From the sequence record MZ956763.1: 64,000 nucleotides of DNA. The stretch is one strand, 5' to 3'. Below the pieces are notes generated by a model, which searched no databases, was not told where the DNA came from, and saw nothing but the letters and a program-made list of their open reading frames with translations. This DNA comes from a phage. Every line of letters starts with the position of its first letter. Position 1 is the first letter of the stretch. Shown piece by piece: positions 2,766 through 19,314 of the stretch. The position numbers and the translations under genes were made by a program.

Positions 2766-4547
2766 ATGACTAAATCACTTTATGCAGTACCAGCAGGTTT
2801 AAACGCAGATGCTTACAAATCTGGTCATGTTTACCAGTACCCTAGTGCAACAGATTACTTGATGTTTAACCTGACACCACGTAGTGATAAATGGTTTAAC
2901 AGCCCTTTAGCAATTGATGGTGTAGTAGCTTTTGGTATTCAACGTTTTGTTAAAGATTACTTGATAGACCACTGGAACGCCACCTTCTTTGAACGTGACA
3001 AAAAAGAAGCAATTGACGAAATCTTAGAAGTCATGAACGGTGTTCTGGGTAAAGATGCTATTGGTCGAGAACATTGGGAAGCACTTCACGACTTAGGTTA
3101 TCTACCAGTTGAGGTATACGCTGTAGAAGAAGGTACAGTTGTCCCTATGCGTGTTCCAATGATTGTATTCCAGAACACTGTTTCAGGTTTCCATTGGGTA
3201 GCGGGATATCTGGAAGATGCTTTCTCTGCTGAGATTTGGAAGGCTTGTACCATTGCAACTATTGCATTGCACTACAAACGTATCTGTAAGAAGTGGTCTG
3301 ACCTTACTTGTGACAATGACTTGCATTTACCTTATCAGTGCCATGACTTCGCTATGCGTGGTATGTCCGGCTTTACCGATGACGCATTTAACGCTGTAGG
3401 TCACTTAACCAGCTTTAAAGGGACTGATAGCTTCCCTGCTGTGTATACAGCTAAACGCATCTATGGGCAGTCCTATCCAATTTCAGATATTGGTGGCTCT
3501 GTACCAGCCACTGAACACTCTGTCATGTGTGCAAACATTGCTTGGGAAGGTGGGGATGAGTTGATTGAAGAAGAAAGACGCTTTAAAGGTGAGTTACAAA
3601 CCTTCCGTCGTTTCTTAACAGAAACTTACCCAACTGGTATTGTAAGTATTGTTTCAGATACTTATAATTTCTGGAGAACTGTATCAGTGATACTACCAGA
3701 ACTCCGTAAAGAGATTATGGAACGTGATGGCAAACTGGTAATTCGTCCTGACTCTGGAGACCCTGTACATATTGTCACAGGTTATAAAGCAATACATTTA
3801 GAGTGTGCTAAAAAGGCTTATTACGAACACCTAAGCAAGCTGGAAGCCAGCGACACAATGTTGAATGCTGTTCTGAACATGAAGCTTGAAAACATTAGCT
3901 ATGGTATTGCTGGGTGGCTACTGTCAGAAGGCTACGAAATGGTTGTTGACAGAGAAGACTTTGAAGTTGCTGATACAGTGATGTTGAAAAACGCTTATAT
4001 GGTTGGTTCTGCAAACGTTGTAACACGTCCTGTAGCAGAGATTGATGGAGCTATCAAGACACTGTATCACATCTTTGGAGGAACTATCAACTCTAAAGGT
4101 TTTAAAGTACTGGATGAGCACATTGGCCTTATTTATGGTGACTCTATCACGTTGGAACGTGCAAACGAAATCCTGAAGCGTTTGTATGAAATGGGTTTTG
4201 CAAGCTCTAACGTAGTGTTTGGTGTAGGTTCTTACACTTACCAGTACATGACTCGTGACACCTTTGCATTTGCTGTCAAAGCAACTCTTGCAAGCATTGG
4301 TGGTAAAGAGATTATGCTTGCAAAAGACCCTAAAACAGATAGTGGTGTTAAGAAATCTGCCTTTGGTGGTGTAGCACCTATGTGGGATGGTGATAAGCTG
4401 AAAGCTGTAGATGGCTATGGATTCCAGAGTTTTGCAGATGTACTTGACCACCCAGCTTGTGCCTTACGTTTAGTCTTTAGTGACTCTGAGCAGTTCGGTT
4501 ACACGACTCTTGGTGATATTCGAAATAATATTGACAAGCAGCTTTAA
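2766..4547 (+). CDS. nicotinamide phosphoribosyltransferase (NAMPT)-like protein
   Basis: 593 aa; N-terminal ADAYKSGHVYQYP resembles NAMPT TDSYKVTHYKQYP; adjacent to PRPP-synthetase-like gene. Confidence 0.75.
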   Translation: MTKSLYAVPAGLNADAYKSGHVYQYPSATDYLMFNLTPRSDKWFNSPLAIDGVVAFGIQRFVKDYLIDHWNATFFERDKKEAIDEILEVMNGVLGKDAIGREHWEALHDLGYLPVEVYAVEEGTVVPMRVPMIVFQNTVSGFHWVAGYLEDAFSAEIWKACTIATIALHYKRICKKWSDLTCDNDLHLPYQCHDFAMRGMSGFTDDAFNAVGHLTSFKGTDSFPAVYTAKRIYGQSYPISDIGGSVPATEHSVMCANIAWEGGDELIEEERRFKGELQTFRRFLTETYPTGIVSIVSDTYNFWRTVSVILPELRKEIMERDGKLVIRPDSGDPVHIVTGYKAIHLECAKKAYYEHLSKLEASDTMLNAVLNMKLENISYGIAGWLLSEGYEMVVDREDFEVADTVMLKNAYMVGSANVVTRPVAEIDGAIKTLYHIFGGTINSKGFKVLDEHIGLIYGDSITLERANEILKRLYEMGFASSNVVFGVGSYTYQYMTRDTFAFAVKATLASIGGKEIMLAKDPKTDSGVKKSAFGGVAPMWDGDKLKAVDGYGFQSFADVLDHPACALRLVFSDSEQFGYTTLGDIRNNIDKQL

Positions 4548-7919: not shown

Positions 7920-9029
7920 ATGACTACTAAAACTAAAGCACAGATTGACGCAGAAATTTACGAACTGGTTAAAGAAGGTAAGCTGACTAAAACAGCTATT
8001 GCACAGAAGTTCAATACTTCAACCCGTTCAGTTGGTCGTGCTGTAGAGCGTCACGAAGCAACCTTAAAAGGGAAGAAGAAGGTGACTTCTAAGCCAGCTA
8101 AGAAGACTTTGAAGCAAGTTGCTAAATCAGTTAAAAAGAAAGCTGACAAACCAGTTGAAAAGGCCGTTAAAGACGCTGTACAGAAAGCTCCAGTAAATAA
8201 ACTGCATGAAGCTATGCAGAAAGATGACAAGATTGAGTACATGATTACTGGTGACTCTGTAATTATGACTTACGGTTCAGAATCTGAAATTGTTGAGTCT
8301 ACTCATCCGAACTATCAAGAGATTGTAGTTCATGTTGTGAAAGGTGAGTTCAAGAAAGCATTTGAACTGATGAACATTCGTAAGTCTATCGAAAACTTCA
8401 CTCAGGGTGCTATCACAATCAAAGGTGACAAGCTCTTCTACGGTGCTGTTGAGATGCGTTCTACTCTGGTTGACCGTATTCTTCATATGATGAAAACTGG
8501 TGATAAAGGTTTTGAACGACTTGTAATGTTCTTCGAAAAACTGATGGAAAACCCATCTAAAGATTCTGTAGAACAACTTTGGGGATTTGTATCACACCTT
8601 GATGTTGAAATTGATGAAGAAGGCTACATCATTGGTTGGAAGAAAGTCTCTACTCGTGAAGGCAAGCTGGTTGACTCTCACACCTACAAAGTGCCTAATG
8701 ATTTGGGTAACATTGTAGAGATGCCACGTTGGATGGTTGATAACAACCGTAACGTAACTTGCTCTCAAGGTCTTCATGTTGGTGCTTGGGATTATGTTCG
8801 TTGCTTCTCAGGTGATACCATCCTGAAGGTTCGTGTCCATCCACGAGATGTTGTATCTGTTCCGACTGATTACAACGATATGAAGATGCGCTCCTCTCGT
8901 TATGAAGTTGCAGCAATCGTTGATAATCAACGTAAAGTGCTGAAAGCATGGGATGGTAAGACTGAAGCTTTGCATGTCATCGTTGGCACTGCTGGTGAAC
9001 TCATCTCTCAACGTAAACGTGAAATCTAA
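7920..9029 (+). CDS. hypothetical protein (possible rIIB-like, by position after rIIA-like gene)
   Basis: ORF 369 aa; lysine-rich N-terminal region; position only. Confidence 0.4.
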   Translation: MTTKTKAQIDAEIYELVKEGKLTKTAIAQKFNTSTRSVGRAVERHEATLKGKKKVTSKPAKKTLKQVAKSVKKKADKPVEKAVKDAVQKAPVNKLHEAMQKDDKIEYMITGDSVIMTYGSESEIVESTHPNYQEIVVHVVKGEFKKAFELMNIRKSIENFTQGAITIKGDKLFYGAVEMRSTLVDRILHMMKTGDKGFERLVMFFEKLMENPSKDSVEQLWGFVSHLDVEIDEEGYIIGWKKVSTREGKLVDSHTYKVPNDLGNIVEMPRWMVDNNRNVTCSQGLHVGAWDYVRCFSGDTILKVRVHPRDVVSVPTDYNDMKMRSSRYEVAAIVDNQRKVLKAWDGKTEALHVIVGTAGELISQRKREI

Positions 9030-12380: not shown

Positions 12381-13166
12381 ATGGGTATTGTAAAAATTAT
12401 TAACGGTGATATCTTTTCAGCATTTGATAAAGGTAAGTTTGACATCATCGGTCAGGGTTGCAACTGTATGAATTTAATGGGTGCAGGTATCGCTGACAAG
12501 ATTTCTAAACTTTACCCAAAAGCATATGAGACCGATACAGAAGTTTATCTATATGCAGGTGGCATTCGTCACAAACCCTGTGAAAATTTACTGGGTAATT
12601 TCTCTGTAGCACGTTTAAAACAAGGTCGTATAGCTAACCTTTACACCCAACTTCATACTGGTAAAGATGCCCGATACAGTGCTTTAGAGTCATCTTTGAA
12701 GCAACTTAACAGATACTGTGAAGTCAATCAGTTGAAGAAAGTTGGTCTGCCTATGATTGGTGCAGGTATCGGTGGACTTGACCCTCAAGCTGTCACAGTT
12801 ATCATTAATCAGGTGATGAAGGGTGTAGATGTATATCTGTATGTCTACGAGACAGAGATGTACAACGAGTTACACTCAGGTTGGAAGAACTACTGTGAAC
12901 CAGAATACTTTGCAGGTGTAGCAGTGTTCACAGATAACGCAGTTACCCTCTTCAGACGAAGAAAAGGTAAGATACATCAAAGTAACCCTCCGGTTGAAAA
13001 GATGTCTCTAAGTAACGCTCTAGTTACCCACCTGTCGAAGAGCAATCACAGGATTGCAGTAACATTTGGCAGTGATGCAGATGCTTACATCTATGCAAGA
13101 ACTGATGAGGATATCGAGACGATTTTCTCTTCACCAGAAGTTACCTTCTTAGACGCAAAGAACTAA
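12381..13166 (+). CDS. Macro-domain (ADP-ribose binding/processing) protein
   Basis: N-terminus IINGDIFSAFDKGKFDIIGQGCNCMNLMGAGIADKI matches macrodomain GDIT...DAIVNAAN..GGG pattern; second Gly-rich loop GLPMIGAGIGGLDP. Confidence 0.65.
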   Translation: MGIVKIINGDIFSAFDKGKFDIIGQGCNCMNLMGAGIADKISKLYPKAYETDTEVYLYAGGIRHKPCENLLGNFSVARLKQGRIANLYTQLHTGKDARYSALESSLKQLNRYCEVNQLKKVGLPMIGAGIGGLDPQAVTVIINQVMKGVDVYLYVYETEMYNELHSGWKNYCEPEYFAGVAVFTDNAVTLFRRRKGKIHQSNPPVEKMSLSNALVTHLSKSNHRIAVTFGSDADAYIYARTDEDIETIFSSPEVTFLDAKN

Positions 13167-13594: not shown

Positions 13595-13623
13595 TTGACT
13601 ATTCGAACGGGGTTATCTAGTAT
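13595..13623 (+). promoter_or_regulatory. sigma70-like promoter TTGACT-17-TAGTAT with downstream leader hairpin
   Basis: consensus-like hexamers; followed by CAACGGGGCGACAAGCCC hairpin and TAGGAG RBS. Confidence 0.5.
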
Positions 13624-13675
13624 TTGCATCAACGGGGCGACAAGCCCGATAGCCTTAAACTAGGAGAATCTAAAA

Positions 13676-13882
13676 ATGCTATACGGTCGTGAATTGATGG
13701 TTACAACTAACGTTAACACAAATGTAAAACGTTTTTACATGCAAATTTGTGGCGTATGGTCTAGAATATCAGAGGCTGACTATTGCAACTATGTAGAAAC
13801 GGCAATCAACTCTGATTGCTACCTTACAAGGAATACAAGAAAGCACATAAGACAGACAGCAGTTTACTACTACGATATCTAA
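13676..13882 (+). CDS. hypothetical protein (early)
   Basis: ORF 68 aa behind conserved RBS cassette. Confidence 0.4.
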   Translation: MLYGRELMVTTNVNTNVKRFYMQICGVWSRISEADYCNYVETAINSDCYLTRNTRKHIRQTAVYYYDI

Positions 13883-13884
13883 TA

Positions 13885-13970
13885 AAGTACTTTACAAGGG
13901 GCTTAAAAGTTGATATCTTAAGCCCCAGATAAAGAGCTTTATCAACAACCTTAAACTAGGAGATTCAAAA
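13885..13970 (+). repeat. reiterated intergenic module (hairpin GGGGCTTA..TAAGCCCC + CCTTAAACTAGGAGATTCAAAAATG)
   Basis: near-identical copies at 14352, 14700, 15767, 16562. Confidence 0.8.
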
Positions 13971-14351
13971 ATGGCATATCGTGCACCTAAATTCATCAAT
14001 AAAGACAATTTCCGCAATGCACTGGAAAAATCACTTGATGAGAATTTTACAGGTCGGGTTATTGTTGTACACGCATTCAATTTTAAGTATGATATTAACG
14101 GGAATAAAATCAACCATTACACGGCAACCATGTTAGATGGTGCGCTTTCAAGTGAAAAAGCCGTACTGAATGCACTTGCTGGACGTGGTAAAAACCTGAT
14201 AAAATGCAATAAGAGACGTTATCAGGGCGGCGCATATGGTTACGATGATGCTGTTTATCATCTTGAGAATATGGGCTATTCAGTGGAAAAAGCTGGAGCG
14301 CCGCAAATCATTGGTAGCGATGGTTATGTAACAATTTTCAAAATTAAATAA
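13971..14351 (+). CDS. hypothetical protein (early)
   Basis: ORF 126 aa. Confidence 0.5.
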   Translation: MAYRAPKFINKDNFRNALEKSLDENFTGRVIVVHAFNFKYDINGNKINHYTATMLDGALSSEKAVLNALAGRGKNLIKCNKRRYQGGAYGYDDAVYHLENMGYSVEKAGAPQIIGSDGYVTIFKIK

Positions 14352-14441
14352 TAAAGTACTTTACAGGGGGCTTATAGTTCGATAAAGTAAGCCCCAGATA
14401 AAGAGCTTTACCACTAAATCCTAAATTGGAGAATCTGAAAA
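14352..14441 (+). repeat. reiterated intergenic module (hairpin + RBS)
   Basis: GGGGGCTTATAGTTCGATAAAGTAAGCCCC hairpin, then conserved AGATAAAGAGCTTTACCACTAAATCCTAAA..GGAG. Confidence 0.8.
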
Positions 14442-14699
14442 ATGGCTATTATCAAAAACGTTGTAGTTCCTGCAAAAACTCGTGATGACGCTCGCGTTAT
14501 GGCTAAAAAGTTATGTGGGAGAGTGGTTGACAACGGGAAACAATCTGCTGTAAGATGGGGTGTAAAGGTTGATAAACATTTAACCTTAAAACGTAGTTCA
14601 AACAACCTTTTTAAAGGTGTAAAATCACTCGGTAAAGTGAACGTTTTTACCAAAAAAGGTTATAAAATGCACTTATCATTAACTGGCAATTTAATCTGA
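14442..14699 (+). CDS. hypothetical protein (early)
   Basis: ORF 85 aa. Confidence 0.45.
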   Translation: MAIIKNVVVPAKTRDDARVMAKKLCGRVVDNGKQSAVRWGVKVDKHLTLKRSSNNLFKGVKSLGKVNVFTKKGYKMHLSLTGNLI

Positions 14700-14787
14700 T
14701 AAAGTACTTTACAAGGGGCTTAAAAGTTGATATCTTAAGCCCCAGATAAAGAGCTTTACCACTAAATCCTAAACTGGAGATTCAAAA
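14700..14787 (+). repeat. reiterated intergenic module (hairpin + RBS)
   Basis: same module as 13885. Confidence 0.8.
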
Positions 14788-15084
14788 ATGAAATTATCAA
14801 ATAAAGTTAGGGAAAACCTTAGCAAATTACTCAATAAAATTGATTTTATCGAGACATCAAGAAATAGTCATGATGTTATGGAATGGTTACACGGCAAAAT
14901 AAAAGGCCGTCGTGTGGTGATTTGCTTATGGAATAGTTGCAGGGAGTATAAAAAACCTGTATTACAAGTTAATATATACGATAATACTTTTAAAAGCCCT
15001 GTAAAGTCTAAAAGCGATTTATTAGAATCTTATGAGATATCTGTAAATGGTAAAGTATCACGTAAAGAGGTAACACCATGCTAA
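14788..15084 (+). CDS. hypothetical protein (early)
   Basis: ORF 98 aa. Confidence 0.45.
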   Translation: MKLSNKVRENLSKLLNKIDFIETSRNSHDVMEWLHGKIKGRRVVICLWNSCREYKKPVLQVNIYDNTFKSPVKSKSDLLESYEISVNGKVSRKEVTPC

Positions 15085-15410
15085 TGACTGGCATCACCGC
15101 AATCATAGCCATTATAGCACTTTATAAGGCATATAAAGCCTATAATCTGGCAAGTAAGGCAATCACGCAGCAGGTTAGCAATAGCCTTGTAGAGAGCTTT
15201 CTAGGGCGCCTCAGTGATGAGCAAATAAAGCGGCTAGAGATGAGCTTCAGATATAAAGCGAAAACCTATCAGATAAGTGACATCTTCAAAGATGATTTTC
15301 AGCTTGTCGATGATTATAATGCTCTGATAAATGCTTTAAATATCAGTGACTTAAAAGACTACTACGCTGTAATTGTTCAAGAACTGAGCAAACGAAAACA
15401 AAATGCTTGA
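15078..15410 (+). CDS. hypothetical membrane protein (early)
   Basis: ORF 110 aa, N-terminal hydrophobic helix. Confidence 0.45.
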   Translation: MLMTGITAIIAIIALYKAYKAYNLASKAITQQVSNSLVESFLGRLSDEQIKRLEMSFRYKAKTYQISDIFKDDFQLVDDYNALINALNISDLKDYYAVIVQELSKRKQNA

Positions 15411-15434
15411 CACTGGTTTTTAGATAGATTAAAT
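15406..15434 (+). promoter_or_regulatory. sigma70-like promoter TTGACA-17-TAAATT
   Basis: followed by conserved leader CATCAACGGGGGGCGATAACCCC hairpin and RBS. Confidence 0.55.
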
Positions 15435-15494
15435 TACACATCAACGGGGGGCGATAACCCCACTACATAAAGCCCTTAAACTAGGAGATTCAAA

Positions 15495-15767
15495 ATGTAT
15501 ACTACTAACAACGGTCGCACCTTAAACGTAACCCTACGCCACTATGTAAACGGGGTGATGCACTTCGAGGATTTACGGGCTGAACAGCATATTTTGGATT
15601 GGCAACTTGCAGGACTCCAAAAAACTGCTACAGGATACGGGAAAAAGATTTCAACTAGTTGGAAAGTATACTACGAGGGACGTTTGCGCAGAATTTATCA
15701 AGATGTGTACAGTAATAGCGCATCAAGTTACATCATGGTAAAAGGTAAAAAACTGCATTTAGTATAA
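15495..15767 (+). CDS. hypothetical protein (early)
   Basis: ORF 90 aa. Confidence 0.45.
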   Translation: MYTTNNGRTLNVTLRHYVNGVMHFEDLRAEQHILDWQLAGLQKTATGYGKKISTSWKVYYEGRLRRIYQDVYSNSASSYIMVKGKKLHLV

Positions 15768-15852
15768 AGTACTTTACAAGGGGCTTATAGTTCGATAAAG
15801 TAAACCCCAGATAAAGAGCTTTACCACTAAATCCTAAATTGGAGATTCAAAA
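15767..15852 (+). repeat. reiterated intergenic module (hairpin + RBS)
   Basis: same module as 14352. Confidence 0.8.
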
Positions 15853-16257
15853 ATGGCTATTAATAACCGTGAATTATCAATCTTAAAAGCACGTTTGACC
15901 GTCAACCGGATTAATGTTATTACATCATCAGCCCCAGACGAAACACTGCAAAACATTATTGGGAAGATTCAAAGTGTTATCTTAGACGTTGAAAGCGTAA
16001 AAAACTCACTGGCTGACGTTGCAGCAGGTATCACGCTAGACGGTGCACAATATGAAATGACCGACATGTTAGGCAAATCTAAGGTAATTAATAGGGAGTT
16101 AGATTTGAAAATGTTTCGTTTTGCTGTTAAAGTGTGGCTATCTGTCGAGTATGACGCAAATTTTGCAATCGCTGACTTTTTTGCAACATGGTTGCAACGT
16201 AATTTAACAAATCACGATTTTCGTGATATCTGCGATGTAATTTACGCAGAACTATAA
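15853..16257 (+). CDS. hypothetical protein (early)
   Basis: ORF 134 aa. Confidence 0.5.
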   Translation: MAINNRELSILKARLTVNRINVITSSAPDETLQNIIGKIQSVILDVESVKNSLADVAAGITLDGAQYEMTDMLGKSKVINRELDLKMFRFAVKVWLSVEYDANFAIADFFATWLQRNLTNHDFRDICDVIYAEL

Positions 16258-16265
16258 AATTTCTC

Positions 16266-16294
16266 TTGATTTTGTTTTTTAAAGCAAGTAAATT
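16266..16294 (+). promoter_or_regulatory. sigma70-like promoter TTGATT-17-TAAATT
   Basis: followed by conserved leader ACTAATCAACGGGAGG... hairpin. Confidence 0.55.
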
Positions 16295-16357
16295 ACTAAT
16301 CAACGGGAGGTCATCACCTACCCACTACATAAAACCCTTAAACTAGGAGATTCTAAA

Positions 16358-16561
16358 ATGGCTATTATTAACGGTTTAAACATTGAGACTACTCACATCA
16401 AAGATATCAAAGTCGGTGATATAGTCCTTTTTCACGGCGTAGAAAAAACCGTCACGGCGAAAGATATCAAGGAGGATTCATTCATGGGCCGAACCCTCTT
16501 CGGTGATTCCTATTGCTTAGGTTACCTTGCAGTTTTAAAAGTTGTCAAAAATAATCGTTAA
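16358..16561 (+). CDS. hypothetical protein (early)
   Basis: ORF 67 aa. Confidence 0.4.
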   Translation: MAIINGLNIETTHIKDIKVGDIVLFHGVEKTVTAKDIKEDSFMGRTLFGDSYCLGYLAVLKVVKNNR

Positions 16562-16648
16562 AGTACTTTACAAGGGGCTTATAGTTCGATAAAGTAAGCC
16601 CCAGATAAAGAGCTTTACCACTCAATCCTTAAACTAGGAGATTCAAAA
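16562..16648 (+). repeat. reiterated intergenic module (hairpin + RBS)
   Basis: same module as 14352. Confidence 0.8.
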
Positions 16649-17191
16649 ATGAAATGCTTTCACGGTACTACTCAAGAAAACTTCATCAACCTGATTAATA
16701 ACGGTGATAAGCCATCAGGTGCATGGAATTGTTCGGATATGGACGGCAATTTTTACGTGTATCCAGAGAATAAAATCTATGGCGACGATGAGGAAGAGAT
16801 AACATCTGAAGGCATCCAGCAAGCGTTAGGCAATGCCACTATCACGGCAGCTTTCCAGATGAAAACCCAAAATATTGTTATCTTAGAACTTGATATCCCA
16901 GAGGATGACCTGAATGATGATTATTCTTGCGATAATATGTCTGGCGTAGCAAGTTTTACAGAATACTTCGATTTGAATTGGATTAAAAAGGTTTACGTAA
17001 CTGAGTTTAATGCGATGTTTTCGCCTTTTTGTCTTCCTTCATTGGATAACCCAAATTTAAACTATCTTGACGAGTCTCTGGAACTTCTTGCTAAAAGTGT
17101 TCAACAGTCGGACAGTATTCAGGTTTTTTGTGACATCATGGATACACTAACGGGAAACATCGCAGAAGAGGATTTAAAGAGCTTTTTTTAA
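16649..17191 (+). CDS. hypothetical protein with PARP/ART-like HG[ST]..N..I..G N-terminal motif
   Basis: MKCFHGTTQENFINLINNG resembles H-Y-E class ADP-ribosyltransferase motif (cf. PARP LLWHGSRTTNFAGILSQG); tentative. Confidence 0.4.
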   Translation: MKCFHGTTQENFINLINNGDKPSGAWNCSDMDGNFYVYPENKIYGDDEEEITSEGIQQALGNATITAAFQMKTQNIVILELDIPEDDLNDDYSCDNMSGVASFTEYFDLNWIKKVYVTEFNAMFSPFCLPSLDNPNLNYLDESLELLAKSVQQSDSIQVFCDIMDTLTGNIAEEDLKSFF

Positions 17192-17232
17192 AAACCTATG
17201 CAATCACCTTATAAACACTAATCAGCCCCTTA

Positions 17233-17253
17233 CAGGGGCTTTTAAGGGGCTTA
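17233..17253 (+). terminator. intrinsic terminator
   Basis: AGCCCCT-TAC-AGGGGCT + TTTT. Confidence 0.6.
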
Positions 17254-17257
17254 AATC

Positions 17258-17491
17258 ATGCTTATAACCGTTTATCTTATCCTTTCTATTTGTAATGGCC
17301 ATTCATGTGATTTTAAAGGGCTTGAGGAGTTCACAGGAAGTAAAGAAAATGCTGTTCAGGTCTGTCAGATAGCAAGGCAAGACTACCCCGCCAGTGATGA
17401 CATACAATGTTATTTTAAGACAGAAGATGAAGATGGTATCTATTTCGATAGTGTAGACGGTCAATATGAAATAATTATAGAAAAAGACTAG
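17258..17491 (+). CDS. hypothetical small protein with N-terminal hydrophobic segment
   Basis: ORF 77 aa. Confidence 0.4.
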   Translation: MLITVYLILSICNGHSCDFKGLEEFTGSKENAVQVCQIARQDYPASDDIQCYFKTEDEDGIYFDSVDGQYEIIIEKD

Positions 17492-17517
17492 ACAAGCCTG
17501 ATAAAAATCTGTAAATT
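17489..17517 (+). promoter_or_regulatory. promoter TAGACA-17-TAAATT with conserved leader hairpin GGGAGGGATGACCTCCC
   Basis: same cassette as 18050, 18646, 18975. Confidence 0.5.
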
Positions 17518-17579
17518 GTCAATCAACGGGAGGGATGACCTCCCAACTAAACAAAGTCCTTAAACTAGGAGATTCAAAA

Positions 17580-17921
17580 ATGGCTTATGTAACCGTAATT
17601 ACCAATAAAGAAGATTCATCTTGGTCAACTCAAGTAAGTGACAAGATGTCACCTATGCAGTGCCTAAAATACTTTGAGCAATGGAACAAAGGTGAGGAAA
17701 CAAGCCCCTTTCAAGTAATGCAGATTATTCATACAGACAACGAAGGGAATAAAACTGTTTTGAATAGTGAGTACTATGCAACCAGATTAGAAACGAGAAG
17801 TAAAGCAATGAAGCTCTTACGTGAATCCGGTTATTCTCATATTGCCGCGCTAATCTGGGATGACCTCCTAAAAAGTCAGCGTATCAGCTATGTAAAACCT
17901 GAAAAAATATTCATCAGTTAA
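17580..17921 (+). CDS. hypothetical protein (early)
   Basis: start placed at ATG after conserved RBS (MAYVTVITNK...); ORF-track N-terminal extension is translated leader. Confidence 0.45.
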   Translation: MAYVTVITNKEDSSWSTQVSDKMSPMQCLKYFEQWNKGEETSPFQVMQIIHTDNEGNKTVLNSEYYATRLETRSKAMKLLRESGYSHIAALIWDDLLKSQRISYVKPEKIFIS

Positions 17922-18049
17922 TCAATAACTTACAAAAAACTTTTAAAAAAATGTTGACAATCCCTCTTGACATTGGTAACTTTGTTCGAGGGGGCTTATC
18001 TAAAAGGGATTCACTTAAAAGATTCTTTATAGATAAGCTCAAAAATTGC

Positions 18050-18078
18050 TTGCAATCAGCTATCAAAACAAGTAAATT
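18050..18078 (+). promoter_or_regulatory. promoter TTGCAA-17-TAAATT with conserved leader hairpin
   Basis: leader CAACGGGAGGGATAACCTCCCC, then TAAACTAGGAGATTCAAAAATG. Confidence 0.55.
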
Positions 18079-18140
18079 ACTAATCAACGGGAGGGATAAC
18101 CTCCCCACTAAGTAAAGTCCTTAAACTAGGAGATTCAAAA

Positions 18141-18671
18141 ATGAACAAGTTCAAAGCTATCAACTTCATTCGTTCAAATAGTGTTATGTCTAAGCCTGTT
18201 AAAGACACCTATGAATTTCGTTGTAATGGTGTACACTTTGCAACCATCACTAAATCAGAAAACGGGGCTTATTACATTCATCGTCGTAATGTTGCAACCG
18301 TTGTAGTCTCTCACTTTATGCAAGCCGTTGCGGAACTCCTCCCGATGTTTTTAGGGCTTTACTTAGATGAGTGTAAAAACGTTCACAATCACGTTAAAAA
18401 CCTTTTAAACAGTTATAAAATGGCTTATGAACGTTCTATCAAGTCCTTAAACAAGTTCTATAAAGCCCCTGTAAATACTGTTTCAATGGCCTACGCTGCA
18501 AATGGTGAAAGAGTAAGCCTATCCGATGTGGAAGATATCGAGCTTTACGACCATCGTCCTAACGGTTACTCTCAGACCCTCGGTGAAGGTTTATCATTCA
18601 ATATCAAGAACTTAGAAAAAACTTTAAAAGATATTGAAAAAGATATTGACGAGACAATCAAAAATCTGTAA
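18141..18671 (+). CDS. hypothetical protein (early)
   Basis: ORF 176 aa. Confidence 0.5.
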   Translation: MNKFKAINFIRSNSVMSKPVKDTYEFRCNGVHFATITKSENGAYYIHRRNVATVVVSHFMQAVAELLPMFLGLYLDECKNVHNHVKNLLNSYKMAYERSIKSLNKFYKAPVNTVSMAYAANGERVSLSDVEDIELYDHRPNGYSQTLGEGLSFNIKNLEKTLKDIEKDIDETIKNL

Positions 18672-18674
18672 ATT
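18646..18674 (+). promoter_or_regulatory. promoter TTGACG-17-TAAATT with conserved leader hairpin
   Basis: overlaps 3' end of previous gene; leader GGGAGGGATGACCTCCC. Confidence 0.55.
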
Positions 18675-18736
18675 ACTAATCAACGGGAGGGATGACCTCC
18701 CTACTAAATAAAGTCCTTAAACTAGGAGTTATCAAG

Positions 18737-19000
18737 ATGGAAAACGTAGAATTAACCACACTTTTACAAATTGCAACCGACAAAGAAAACGTAGCATTAA
18801 TTCACCGCATCGAAAGTGATTTGTTCAATGGTGAAATCATCAAAGAGTCTTACGAAGTTGTCGGATTCAAAGATGGTAAAACGTTTGGATTCTTTGACCT
18901 CGAAAAAGGCAACGCTATTACAAAATATGATGTTNTATCTTGTGAGATTCTTACAAAATACAACGAAAAAAGGCTTGCAACATACGCNAACATGCAGTAA
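18737..19000 (+). CDS. hypothetical protein (early; contains ambiguous bases)
   Basis: start at ATG after GGAG (MENVELTT..); two N in sequence. Confidence 0.4.
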   Translation: MENVELTTLLQIATDKENVALIHRIESDLFNGEIIKESYEVVGFKDGKTFGFFDLEKGNAITKYDVXSCEILTKYNEKRLATYXNMQ

Positions 19001-19003
19001 ATT
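18975..19003 (+). promoter_or_regulatory. promoter TTGCAA-17-TAAATT with conserved leader hairpin
   Basis: -10 overlaps stop codon of previous gene. Confidence 0.5.
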
Positions 19004-19065
19004 ACTAATCAACGGGAGGGATGACCTCCNTACTAAATAAAACCNTTAAACTAGGAGATTCAAAA

Positions 19066-19314
19066 ATGGCAACTATCCGCGCAACCGTTAACNAATTNNG
19101 CTTCTACTCTCTGGATGTTAAATTTGACCTTGTGGGCACTGATAACGCCTTTGAAATGGTGAAAGGTCTTATCAGTCAGACCATCAAAGACTATAATCCT
19201 TCTGATGAGTTCTGGAAAGAAACAAAACAGGAAGTTCTTAAAGATGGTTATTCTTTTCACTATTGGGGTGAAAAAATTGTCTCTCTGTACTACGATAAAG
19301 AAGGCACTAACTAA
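19066..19314 (+). CDS. hypothetical protein (early; contains ambiguous bases)
   Basis: start at ATG after conserved RBS (MATIRATV..). Confidence 0.4.
   Translation: MATIRATVNXXXFYSLDVKFDLVGTDNAFEMVKGLISQTIKDYNPSDEFWKETKQEVLKDGYSFHYWGEKIVSLYYDKEGTN

Follow-up and report, generated by a model that had tools for sequence, protein, structure and literature searches.

The 180-residue protein encoded at positions 16649-17191 of the phage DNA studied here is, with a probability that we put at about 0.6, a small, standalone, acidic phage ADP-ribosyltransferase (ART) with an H-Y-D active site, which mono-ADP-ribosylates a host-cell target and provides an accessory, host-dependent advantage. It belongs to phrog_3303, a large, phage-encoded and previously unnamed family within the well-known ART superfamily. 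The whole stretch analysed (the window; 64,000 nucleotides, sequence record MZ956763.1) comes from a Felixounavirus (Felix O1-like myovirus, Ounavirinae); the region shares 91-93% DNA identity with more than 100 such phages, and the reading frame is recorded as a 'hypothetical protein' in every such Felixounavirus among the matches listed. The original prediction, which raised a possible ART from an HGT-containing N-terminus followed by an aromatic YVYPE segment, placed the reading frame exactly (+ strand, 180 aa), and both elements are present in the translation, with MKCFHGTTQENFINLINNG at the N-terminus and FYVYPE at residues 35-40.

An AF2 model built from a deep alignment reached a pLDDT of 97 (a shallow alignment of 23 sequences gave an unusable model, pLDDT 56, and the deep-alignment model was used instead), and its structural matches are almost exclusively ARTs. 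Tpt1 is the closest structural relative, and diphtheria toxin, exotoxin A, RES domains, and AcrIF11 are also among the matches; the model contains the split beta-sheet core of the ART fold, superposable on solved ARTs. Foldseek matches in the PDB were weak, the sole four above noise being ART-fold proteins, and the best matches in BFVD are uncharacterised phage proteins, one phage DarT, and several proteins of Bacillus phage G. At least seven phage G proteins match the ART-like model in BFVD (Gp336, Gp532, Gp233, Gp568, Gp141, Gp251, and Gp610), which suggests that paralogous small ART-fold proteins may have expanded greatly in this phage.

Weak matches to known ART models recur across the family, in an alignment of 145 members from which all conservation counts given here were taken (mean column identity 18%; members mostly 25-40% identical to the window protein). 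Sub-threshold matches to Pfam PARP occur in 33 members (best E 6e-4, covering 55 residues, HGT strand through Tyr strand), to Tpt1/KptA in eight (Pfam), and to RNA 2'-phosphotransferase in 21 (NCBIfam); one member matches Pfam 2CompART at E 2e-4 over the region containing D91, and the top PDB profile match is a Tpt1, aligned at an lFHGT..n...Il..G motif. The best PARP score (PF00644) is 19.8 bits, below the gathering cutoff of 26.7. Remote-homology search and structure prediction, two of the checks proposed with the original prediction, thus led to a related rather than an unrelated fold, and the pLDDT-97 model together with the family-wide PARP, Tpt1, and 2CompART matches bears out the call at the level of the fold, with the ART fold predicted as firmly as prediction allows. 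The predicted parts of the protein are listed below (window coordinates).

16649-17011, + strand: ART-like core, residues 1-121
16661-16669, + strand: codons of H5-G6-T7, predicted strand-1 motif of the NAD+ site; aligned with HGT in KptA, in a Tpt1 structure, and in Arr-3
16724-16735, + strand: codons of W26-N-C28-S29, family-specific loop that follows strand 1/helix 1 and leads to the Tyr strand
16754-16756, + strand: codon of Y36, predicted nicotinamide-stacking Tyr; aligns to Arr-3 Y52 (Arr-ms Y49)
16919-16939, + strand: codons of D91-Y-S93-C94-D-N96-M97, the D-x-S-C-x-N-M segment with the predicted catalytic Asp
17012-17188, + strand: C-terminal helical region, residues 122-180, family-specific and less conserved

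The modelled core runs through a strand (residues 2-8), a helix (9-16), the Tyr strand (35-39), a long helix (48-70), a strand (74-82), a loop (83-101), and two further strands (102-104 and 112-120); residues 122-180 are a candidate target-recognition module. H5-G6-T7 on strand 2-8 provides the strand-1 His/Arg followed by Gly and Ser/Thr that marks an NAD+ site, and Y36 on strand 35-39 the aromatic/Ser residue of the second NAD-site strand. In the strand-1 motif, [YF]-H5-G6-T7-[TS], H is kept in 142, G in 139, and T in 130 of the 145 members, and Y36 in 143, so a motif call that had rested on a few residues turns out to be far above chance. The loop before the Tyr strand is also conserved (W26 in 145/145, S29 in 140/145, and C28 in 104/145), as is the segment [E]-D-D91-x-S93-C94-x-N96-M97, in which D91 and S93 are invariant (145/145 each) and C94, N96, and M97 are kept in 129, 128, and 139 members, respectively.

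The acidic position departs from the H-Y-E class to which the motif had been likened. E80, on the following strand, is the sole candidate for the Glu of an H-Y-E triad, and we rejected it, as it is kept in just 87/145 members. Because D91, past the strand-4 loop, is invariant and aligns to the catalytic Asp of Arr, albeit in a weak alignment (P 0.017), the triad is most likely H5-Y36-D91, putatively arranged as in the minimal ART Arr. In Arr-ms, HGT (H19-G20-T21, at the end of beta-1), Y49 (beta-3), and D84, part of a conserved D-P-N-[VL] motif, lie next to one another and are critical by mutagenesis (PMC6092378). For the comparison we built an Arr profile, with an Arr-3 sequence that matches annotated plasmid genes at 100% identity. 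The best local hhalign alignment places the long helix, IVILELD, and N89-D90-D91 of the window protein onto the helix, IYIVE, and E-D-D of Arr, and a permissive alignment is collinear throughout, pairing H5-G6-T7 with Arr-3 H22-G23-T24, Y36 with Y52, D91 with D91, and N96 with N93; H22, Y52, and D91 of Arr-3 correspond to H19, Y49, and D84 of Arr-ms. This alignment is weak (score 19.7, probability 2.7%), although just one of 100 column-shuffled Arr profiles reaches that score (mean 12.5, sd 2.4), and we therefore infer the H-Y-D equivalence with Arr; a global hhalign run gave no meaningful alignment of the two.

Although the apparent layout is the same, the two proteins share no significant sequence similarity and differ in several parts. 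Unlike Arr, the window protein has an 18-residue W-x-C-S loop inserted before the Tyr strand, the W26-N-C28-S29 segment sitting where the NAD-binding loop of Arr is described (PMC6092378); its substrate loop reads D-Y-S-C-D-N-M (D-x-S-C-x-N-M in the family) in place of the rifamycin-binding D-P-N-[VL], and it carries an additional C-terminal helical region of 60 residues. The Arr model PF12120 does not match the protein at E <= 10 and is absent among the 25 families listed for the 145 members. Arr is bacterial or integron-borne, whereas the family is phage-encoded, and nothing points to rifamycin as a phage substrate.

The family is also set apart from the R-S-E clade, with His in place of Arg, C-S in place of S-T-S, and an acidic segment, [E/N]-D-D, in which an Asp takes the catalytic position. 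T4 Alt, ModA, and ModB belong to that clade (Arg/Ser-Thr-Ser/Glu-x-Glu), whereas the window family has His/Tyr/Asp, and neither these early or injected phage ARTs nor the anti-CRISPR ART AcrIF11 shows any detectable sequence relationship to the protein; AcrIF11 is an anti-CRISPR, whereas no anti-defence phenotype is reported for the Bas63 ortholog, gp107. The cholera/pertussis-toxin-like toxins and the Rhs toxins TreX and TreTu also have the R-S-E set, are secreted or delivered, and are 3-12% identical to the protein; TreX and TreTu have cognate immunity proteins, whereas no immunity-like neighbour accompanies the family at the loci examined.

The protein matches phrog_3303 ('unknown function') at E 4e-91, and all 145 aligned members fall in this phrog, none of them with a source name or a precomputed Pfam domain. 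A word-indexed search returned relatives solely of the Ounavirinae type, and an HMM search run exhaustively over 1.84 billion cluster representatives recovered 322 proteins at E <= 1e-3 and 138 at E <= 1e-10, nearly all standalone and 170-200 aa long. By tblastn, homologs occur in 376 deposited phage genomes and are labelled 'hypothetical' in all those listed; the carriers are Ounavirinae of Escherichia, Salmonella, Shigella, and Citrobacter, Erwinia phages, about 80 Pseudomonas PAK_P1/Pakpunavirus phages, and Vibrio phages of about 137 kb. A 242-aa member with a longer C-terminus is encoded at 8001-8729 of a 273,941-bp contig (ENA ERZ12593158 NODE_10), which may be a jumbo phage, and the family is therefore not confined to phages of 85-140 kb.

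No model in Pfam, NCBIfam, or PADLOC covers the family; the window protein has no Pfam match at E <= 10, and a PDB sequence search and a shallow-profile PDB search were both empty. Four members match Pfam DUF6912 (best E 7e-5), and we treated single-member Pfam matches to Tad6 (E 5.5e-3), CARDS_D3, and others as chance. PavP (PaoP5_160) was considered as a characterised homolog and rejected, as it is an 84-aa protein outside the family.

The gene has its own regulatory surroundings, as follows.

16536-16651, + strand: D1-type regulatory module upstream of the coding sequence, a 116-nt direct repeat, one of five copies
16567-16595, + strand: sigma70-like promoter candidate TTTACA-N17-TAAAGT, from a consensus scan
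16636-16640, + strand: ribosome-binding site AGGAG, 8 nt 5' of the ATG, read from the sequence, within a leader conserved in eight copies
16649-17191, + strand: coding sequence of the 180-aa ART-fold protein of phrog_3303, with ATG at 16649 and a stop ending at 17191
17224-17240, strand not assigned: GC-rich hairpin AGCCCCTTACAGGGGCT directly 3' of the gene, a candidate terminator from a terminator-like scan

The D1 copy at 16536-16651 combines a promoter-like element, an embedded hairpin (GGGGCTTA...TAAGCCCC), and the conserved leader CCTTAAACTAGGAGATTCAAAAATG, and the 29-mer of the promoter candidate also occurs at 14360 and 15773, identical or near-identical, with essentially the same spacer and an ORF downstream each time. 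In phage Barry, a 'potential terminator' is annotated at the equivalent site after the ortholog. We infer early status for the gene solely from its position, because it lies in a same-strand block downstream of rIIA/rIIB with repeated sigma70-like promoter cassettes.

More generally, the early region (window 13600-19100, + strand) consists of gene cassettes, each behind one of two repeated regulatory modules. D1 modules precede early-region ORFs, with TTTACA-N17-TAAAGT overlapping the hairpin, and D2 modules (82 nt, five copies) carry GTAAATTACTAATCAACGGGAGGGATGACCTCCC; both kinds terminate in near-identical copies of the same leader, eight in all, and have hairpins inside or beside their promoters. 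Mechanically called ORFs at 17535, 18692, and 19021 (+ strand) have a common N-terminus, MTSQLNKVLKLGDSKM, which is a read-through of the shared D2 leader (translating as KLGDSKM), and their true start is probably a conserved ATG further downstream. N bases at about 18900-19100 give X residues in several ORF translations, which looks like an assembly or consensus-quality issue. The ORF directly upstream of the gene (16358-16561, + strand, 67 aa, phrog_3623) also contains LFHGVEK; the PhageMaP label for its Bas63 ortholog, g106, is 'prohead assembly scaffold protein*', a role that seems improbable for an early-region protein of 65 aa.

We compared six loci: the window, three metagenomic phage-like contigs (one of 274 kb), Pseudomonas phage PaGz-1, and Vibrio phage 184E37-2. 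In each of them the gene is one of a series of small, unannotated ORFs on the same strand, and an all-against-all BLAST of the flanks of five loci found nothing in common except the gene itself. The window also contains the following genes.

1811-2719, + strand: PRPP-synthetase-like (Prs-like) gene, Pribosyltran/Pribosyl_synth
2766-4547, + strand: NAPRTase/NAMPT-type gene adjoining the Prs-like gene
12381-13166, + strand: Macro-domain protein, 261 aa (PF01661, E 1.4e-7)

The ART had been proposed to complete a writer/eraser/NAD+-supply set with Macro and NAMPT-like genes. These genes, and a Prs-like one, do exist in the window, but they do not look like a dedicated system. Phage records with a Macro homolog (T4 Tk.4 type) number 2,847, as against 376 with a member of the window family, and include T4-like phages that lack the family, and neither a Macro nor a NAMPT gene lies near distant family members at the loci examined. 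We rejected the Macro protein as a dedicated eraser partner on these record counts. The genes at 1811-2719 and 2766-4547 look like an NAD+-reconstitution pair (Adps plus Namat, NARP1) rather than a plain NAMPT. Their Bas63 counterparts, g79 and g80, are validated counters of the NAD+-depleting Sir2-HerA system, under which their deletion lowers plating efficiency by 10^4-10^6, and they also counter the Ec86 retron and hhe defences (PhageMaP; bioRxiv 10.1101/2024.10.10.617714). As for the Macro protein itself, which corresponds to Bas63 g95, residues 1 to about 160 are common with T4 Tk.4-type phage macro proteins, and the C-terminal 100 or so residues, which have no assigned domain, are covered solely in Felix O1-type matches; matches are full-length in Escherichia and Citrobacter phages and reach about 60% coverage elsewhere, including in an Erwinia phage, and the names given by depositors vary between phosphatase and O-acetyl-ADP-ribose deacetylase.

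Knockout data are available for a close ortholog, bas63_0107 (gp107) of phage Bas63/JohannRWettstein, which is 98% identical (176/180) to the window protein. PhageMaP reports genome-wide Bas63 knockouts, in which g107 is one of four genes 'more essential' on E. coli S17-1 and is not among the reported counters or triggers of 12 defence systems (bioRxiv 10.1101/2024.10.10.617714). PhageMaP gene numbers correspond to locus tags, as checked with genes 65, 73, 74, 80, 123, and 124. The replicate scores of the g107 knockout are 0.11, 0.31, and 0.34 on S17-1; 0.72, 1.03, and 0.91 on MG1655; 0.73, 0.70, and 0.60 on a TerY-P strain; and 0.66, 0.87, and 0.97 on an AVAST type 4 strain. The essentiality line lies at zero and every score is above it, and g107 is therefore dispensable, with a modest, reproducible cost of its loss on S17-1. 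In the two of the ten PhageMaP defence-panel sheets that were sampled, g107 has no effect.

What the protein might modify is constrained by its charge. It has a pI of 4.05 and a net charge of -24; across the family the median pI is 4.29, with no basic protein among the 145 members. This uniform acidity speaks against direct binding to nucleic acids as in DarT or Tpt1 and favours a protein (possibly basic or nucleic-acid-binding) or a small molecule, which we consider more likely targets than DNA or RNA. We consider it very unlikely that the protein is a nucleic-acid ART or RNA-repair enzyme, whether Tpt1/KptA-like (2'-phosphate removal or 5'-phosphate capping) or DarT-like (acting on DNA bases). 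KptA has a pI of 9.4 and its HGT at residues 104-106 of 184, whereas only four residues precede the HGT of the window protein, which is therefore without the whole Tpt1 N-terminal RNA-binding lobe, the part that carries the catalytic Arg-His-Arg-Arg tetrad. Against E. coli KptA, hhalign aligned just the 21-residue HGT motif, and we claim no homology; the Tpt1/KptA model PF01885 does not match the protein, and the two members examined score 11.9-12.5 bits against a cutoff of 26. The 145 members have no significant DarT match in Pfam or in PADLOC, the latter giving nothing significant at all, and their acidity speaks against a basic DNA-binding surface. We give the least credence to a role as toxin in a toxin-antitoxin pair, although Iyer et al. 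2022 predicted such a pair, made up of a 'p0068-like' H-Y-[EDQ] ART and a Dmd antitoxin, for phages of Escherichia, Shigella, and Salmonella, a host range that fits the family, and rank p0068-like ARTs among the most frequent viral ARTs (PMC9503650). A small ORF does lie 3' of the gene in most loci examined, but no neighbour is conserved between distant loci, and each flanking ORF of the six loci belongs to a different unannotated phrog, none to phrog_2102, that of T4 Dmd. With no Pfam Dmd match in these ORFs and no Dmd-like sequence in the window by tblastn, we rejected the link to Dmd. T4-like phages are the ones known for carrying dmd, and tblastn found no homolog of the window family in them.

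Two further explanations accept the ART fold and differ over what it does, and we regard both as improbable. The protein could be a small-molecule ART or an NAD+-processing enzyme. Instead of modifying a macromolecule, it would, like Arr, act on a compound of low molecular weight (an antibiotic-like toxin or an immune signalling nucleotide), or it would hydrolyse NAD+ or turn it into a soluble derivative of ADP-ribose. In favour of this, Arr, which gives the best collinear match to the active site, is itself a small-molecule ART and has the H-Y-D layout too; the protein is also small and single-domain, has no partner gene at the loci examined, and is acidic, as is Arr (pI 5.2). Its closest structural relative, Tpt1, presumably sits together with Arr in the RNA-repair ART clade. 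Small-molecule modification and soluble ADPr products are among the roles assigned to that clade in a 2022 survey (PMC9503650), in line with such an activity. The Arr model is nevertheless unmatched, the Arr D-P-N-[VL] is replaced by D-x-S-C-x-N-M and followed by the helical extension, a general NADase would oppose the phage's own validated g79/g80 pair, and the two defence strains sampled show no tie to signalling-based defence; we thus hold this explanation to be unlikely. We would put a little lower still the chance of a non-catalytic ART-fold protein, either a binder or sensor of NAD+ or ADP-ribose or an acidic decoy in stoichiometric complex with a basic host protein, in which the conserved residues would serve ligand binding or fold stability. 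The strong negative charge recalls phage proteins that act as mimics or decoys, a canonical catalytic Glu is missing (E80 being 60% conserved), the g107 knockout phenotype is weak, and standalone NAD+-binding sensor domains have been proposed for phages (PMC9503650). What speaks against it is that D91 and S93 are invariant, and H5, G6, and Y36 nearly so, in very divergent sequences, which is the pattern of a catalytic site. Inactive ARTs such as PARP13 typically shed the H/Y/acid positions, and Asp is proven catalytic at the equivalent position of Arr (PMC6092378).

For the preferred reading, a mono-ADP-ribosylating ART with an H-Y-D site, we propose the following course. The gene, in the early/accessory region, would be expressed from a sigma70-like promoter cassette of its own. 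Y36 and the H5-G6-T7 strand would hold NAD+, and D91 in its D-x-S-C-x-N-M loop would activate the ribose-nicotinamide bond, leading to nicotinamide release; S93 and the C-x-N-M loop would, together with D91, position the acceptor, so that one ADP-ribose could be moved from NAD+ to a host-cell target, probably selected by the C-terminal helical region (residues 122-180). The gene lies outside the core replication machinery, and the modification would bring a host-dependent accessory benefit, in host takeover or counter-defence.

We also entertain, tentatively and as a possibility with the odds against it, that phrog_3303 is a second widespread class of enzymatic counter-defence ARTs after AcrIF11, which modifies an immunity or exclusion factor of the host or of a mobile element. 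On S17-1, which we take to carry integrated RP4-2/Mu/Tn7 DNA, the candidate target would be something encoded on that DNA. Counter-defence of this kind would account for the gene being dispensable on laboratory strains of K-12 yet contributing to fitness on S17-1. In a more radical variant, an Arr-like small-molecule ART would inactivate an immune signalling nucleotide.

The likeness of Bas63 gp107 to the NAD+ lobe of Tpt1 has already been mentioned in a preprint, and our literature searches found no earlier description of the extent of the family, its ART assignment, its H-Y-D site, its acidity, or its absence of partner genes. The family is common in phages that are therapeutic candidates, namely, Felix O1-like phages of Salmonella, E. 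coli, and Shigella, PAK_P1-like Pseudomonas phages, and Erwinia and Vibrio phages. The ART assignment with the H-Y-D site (H5, Y36, and D91) provides a concrete, mutable predicted active site, and together with the Bas63 knockout library this offers a tractable route to what these phages ADP-ribosylate. It also sets the gene apart from the NAD+-reconstitution genes of the same phage, whose anti-defence role is validated. The family would widen the set of phage ARTs past the T4 Alt/Mod type and AcrIF11, and may represent an Arr-type, Asp-based minimal ART architecture in viruses.
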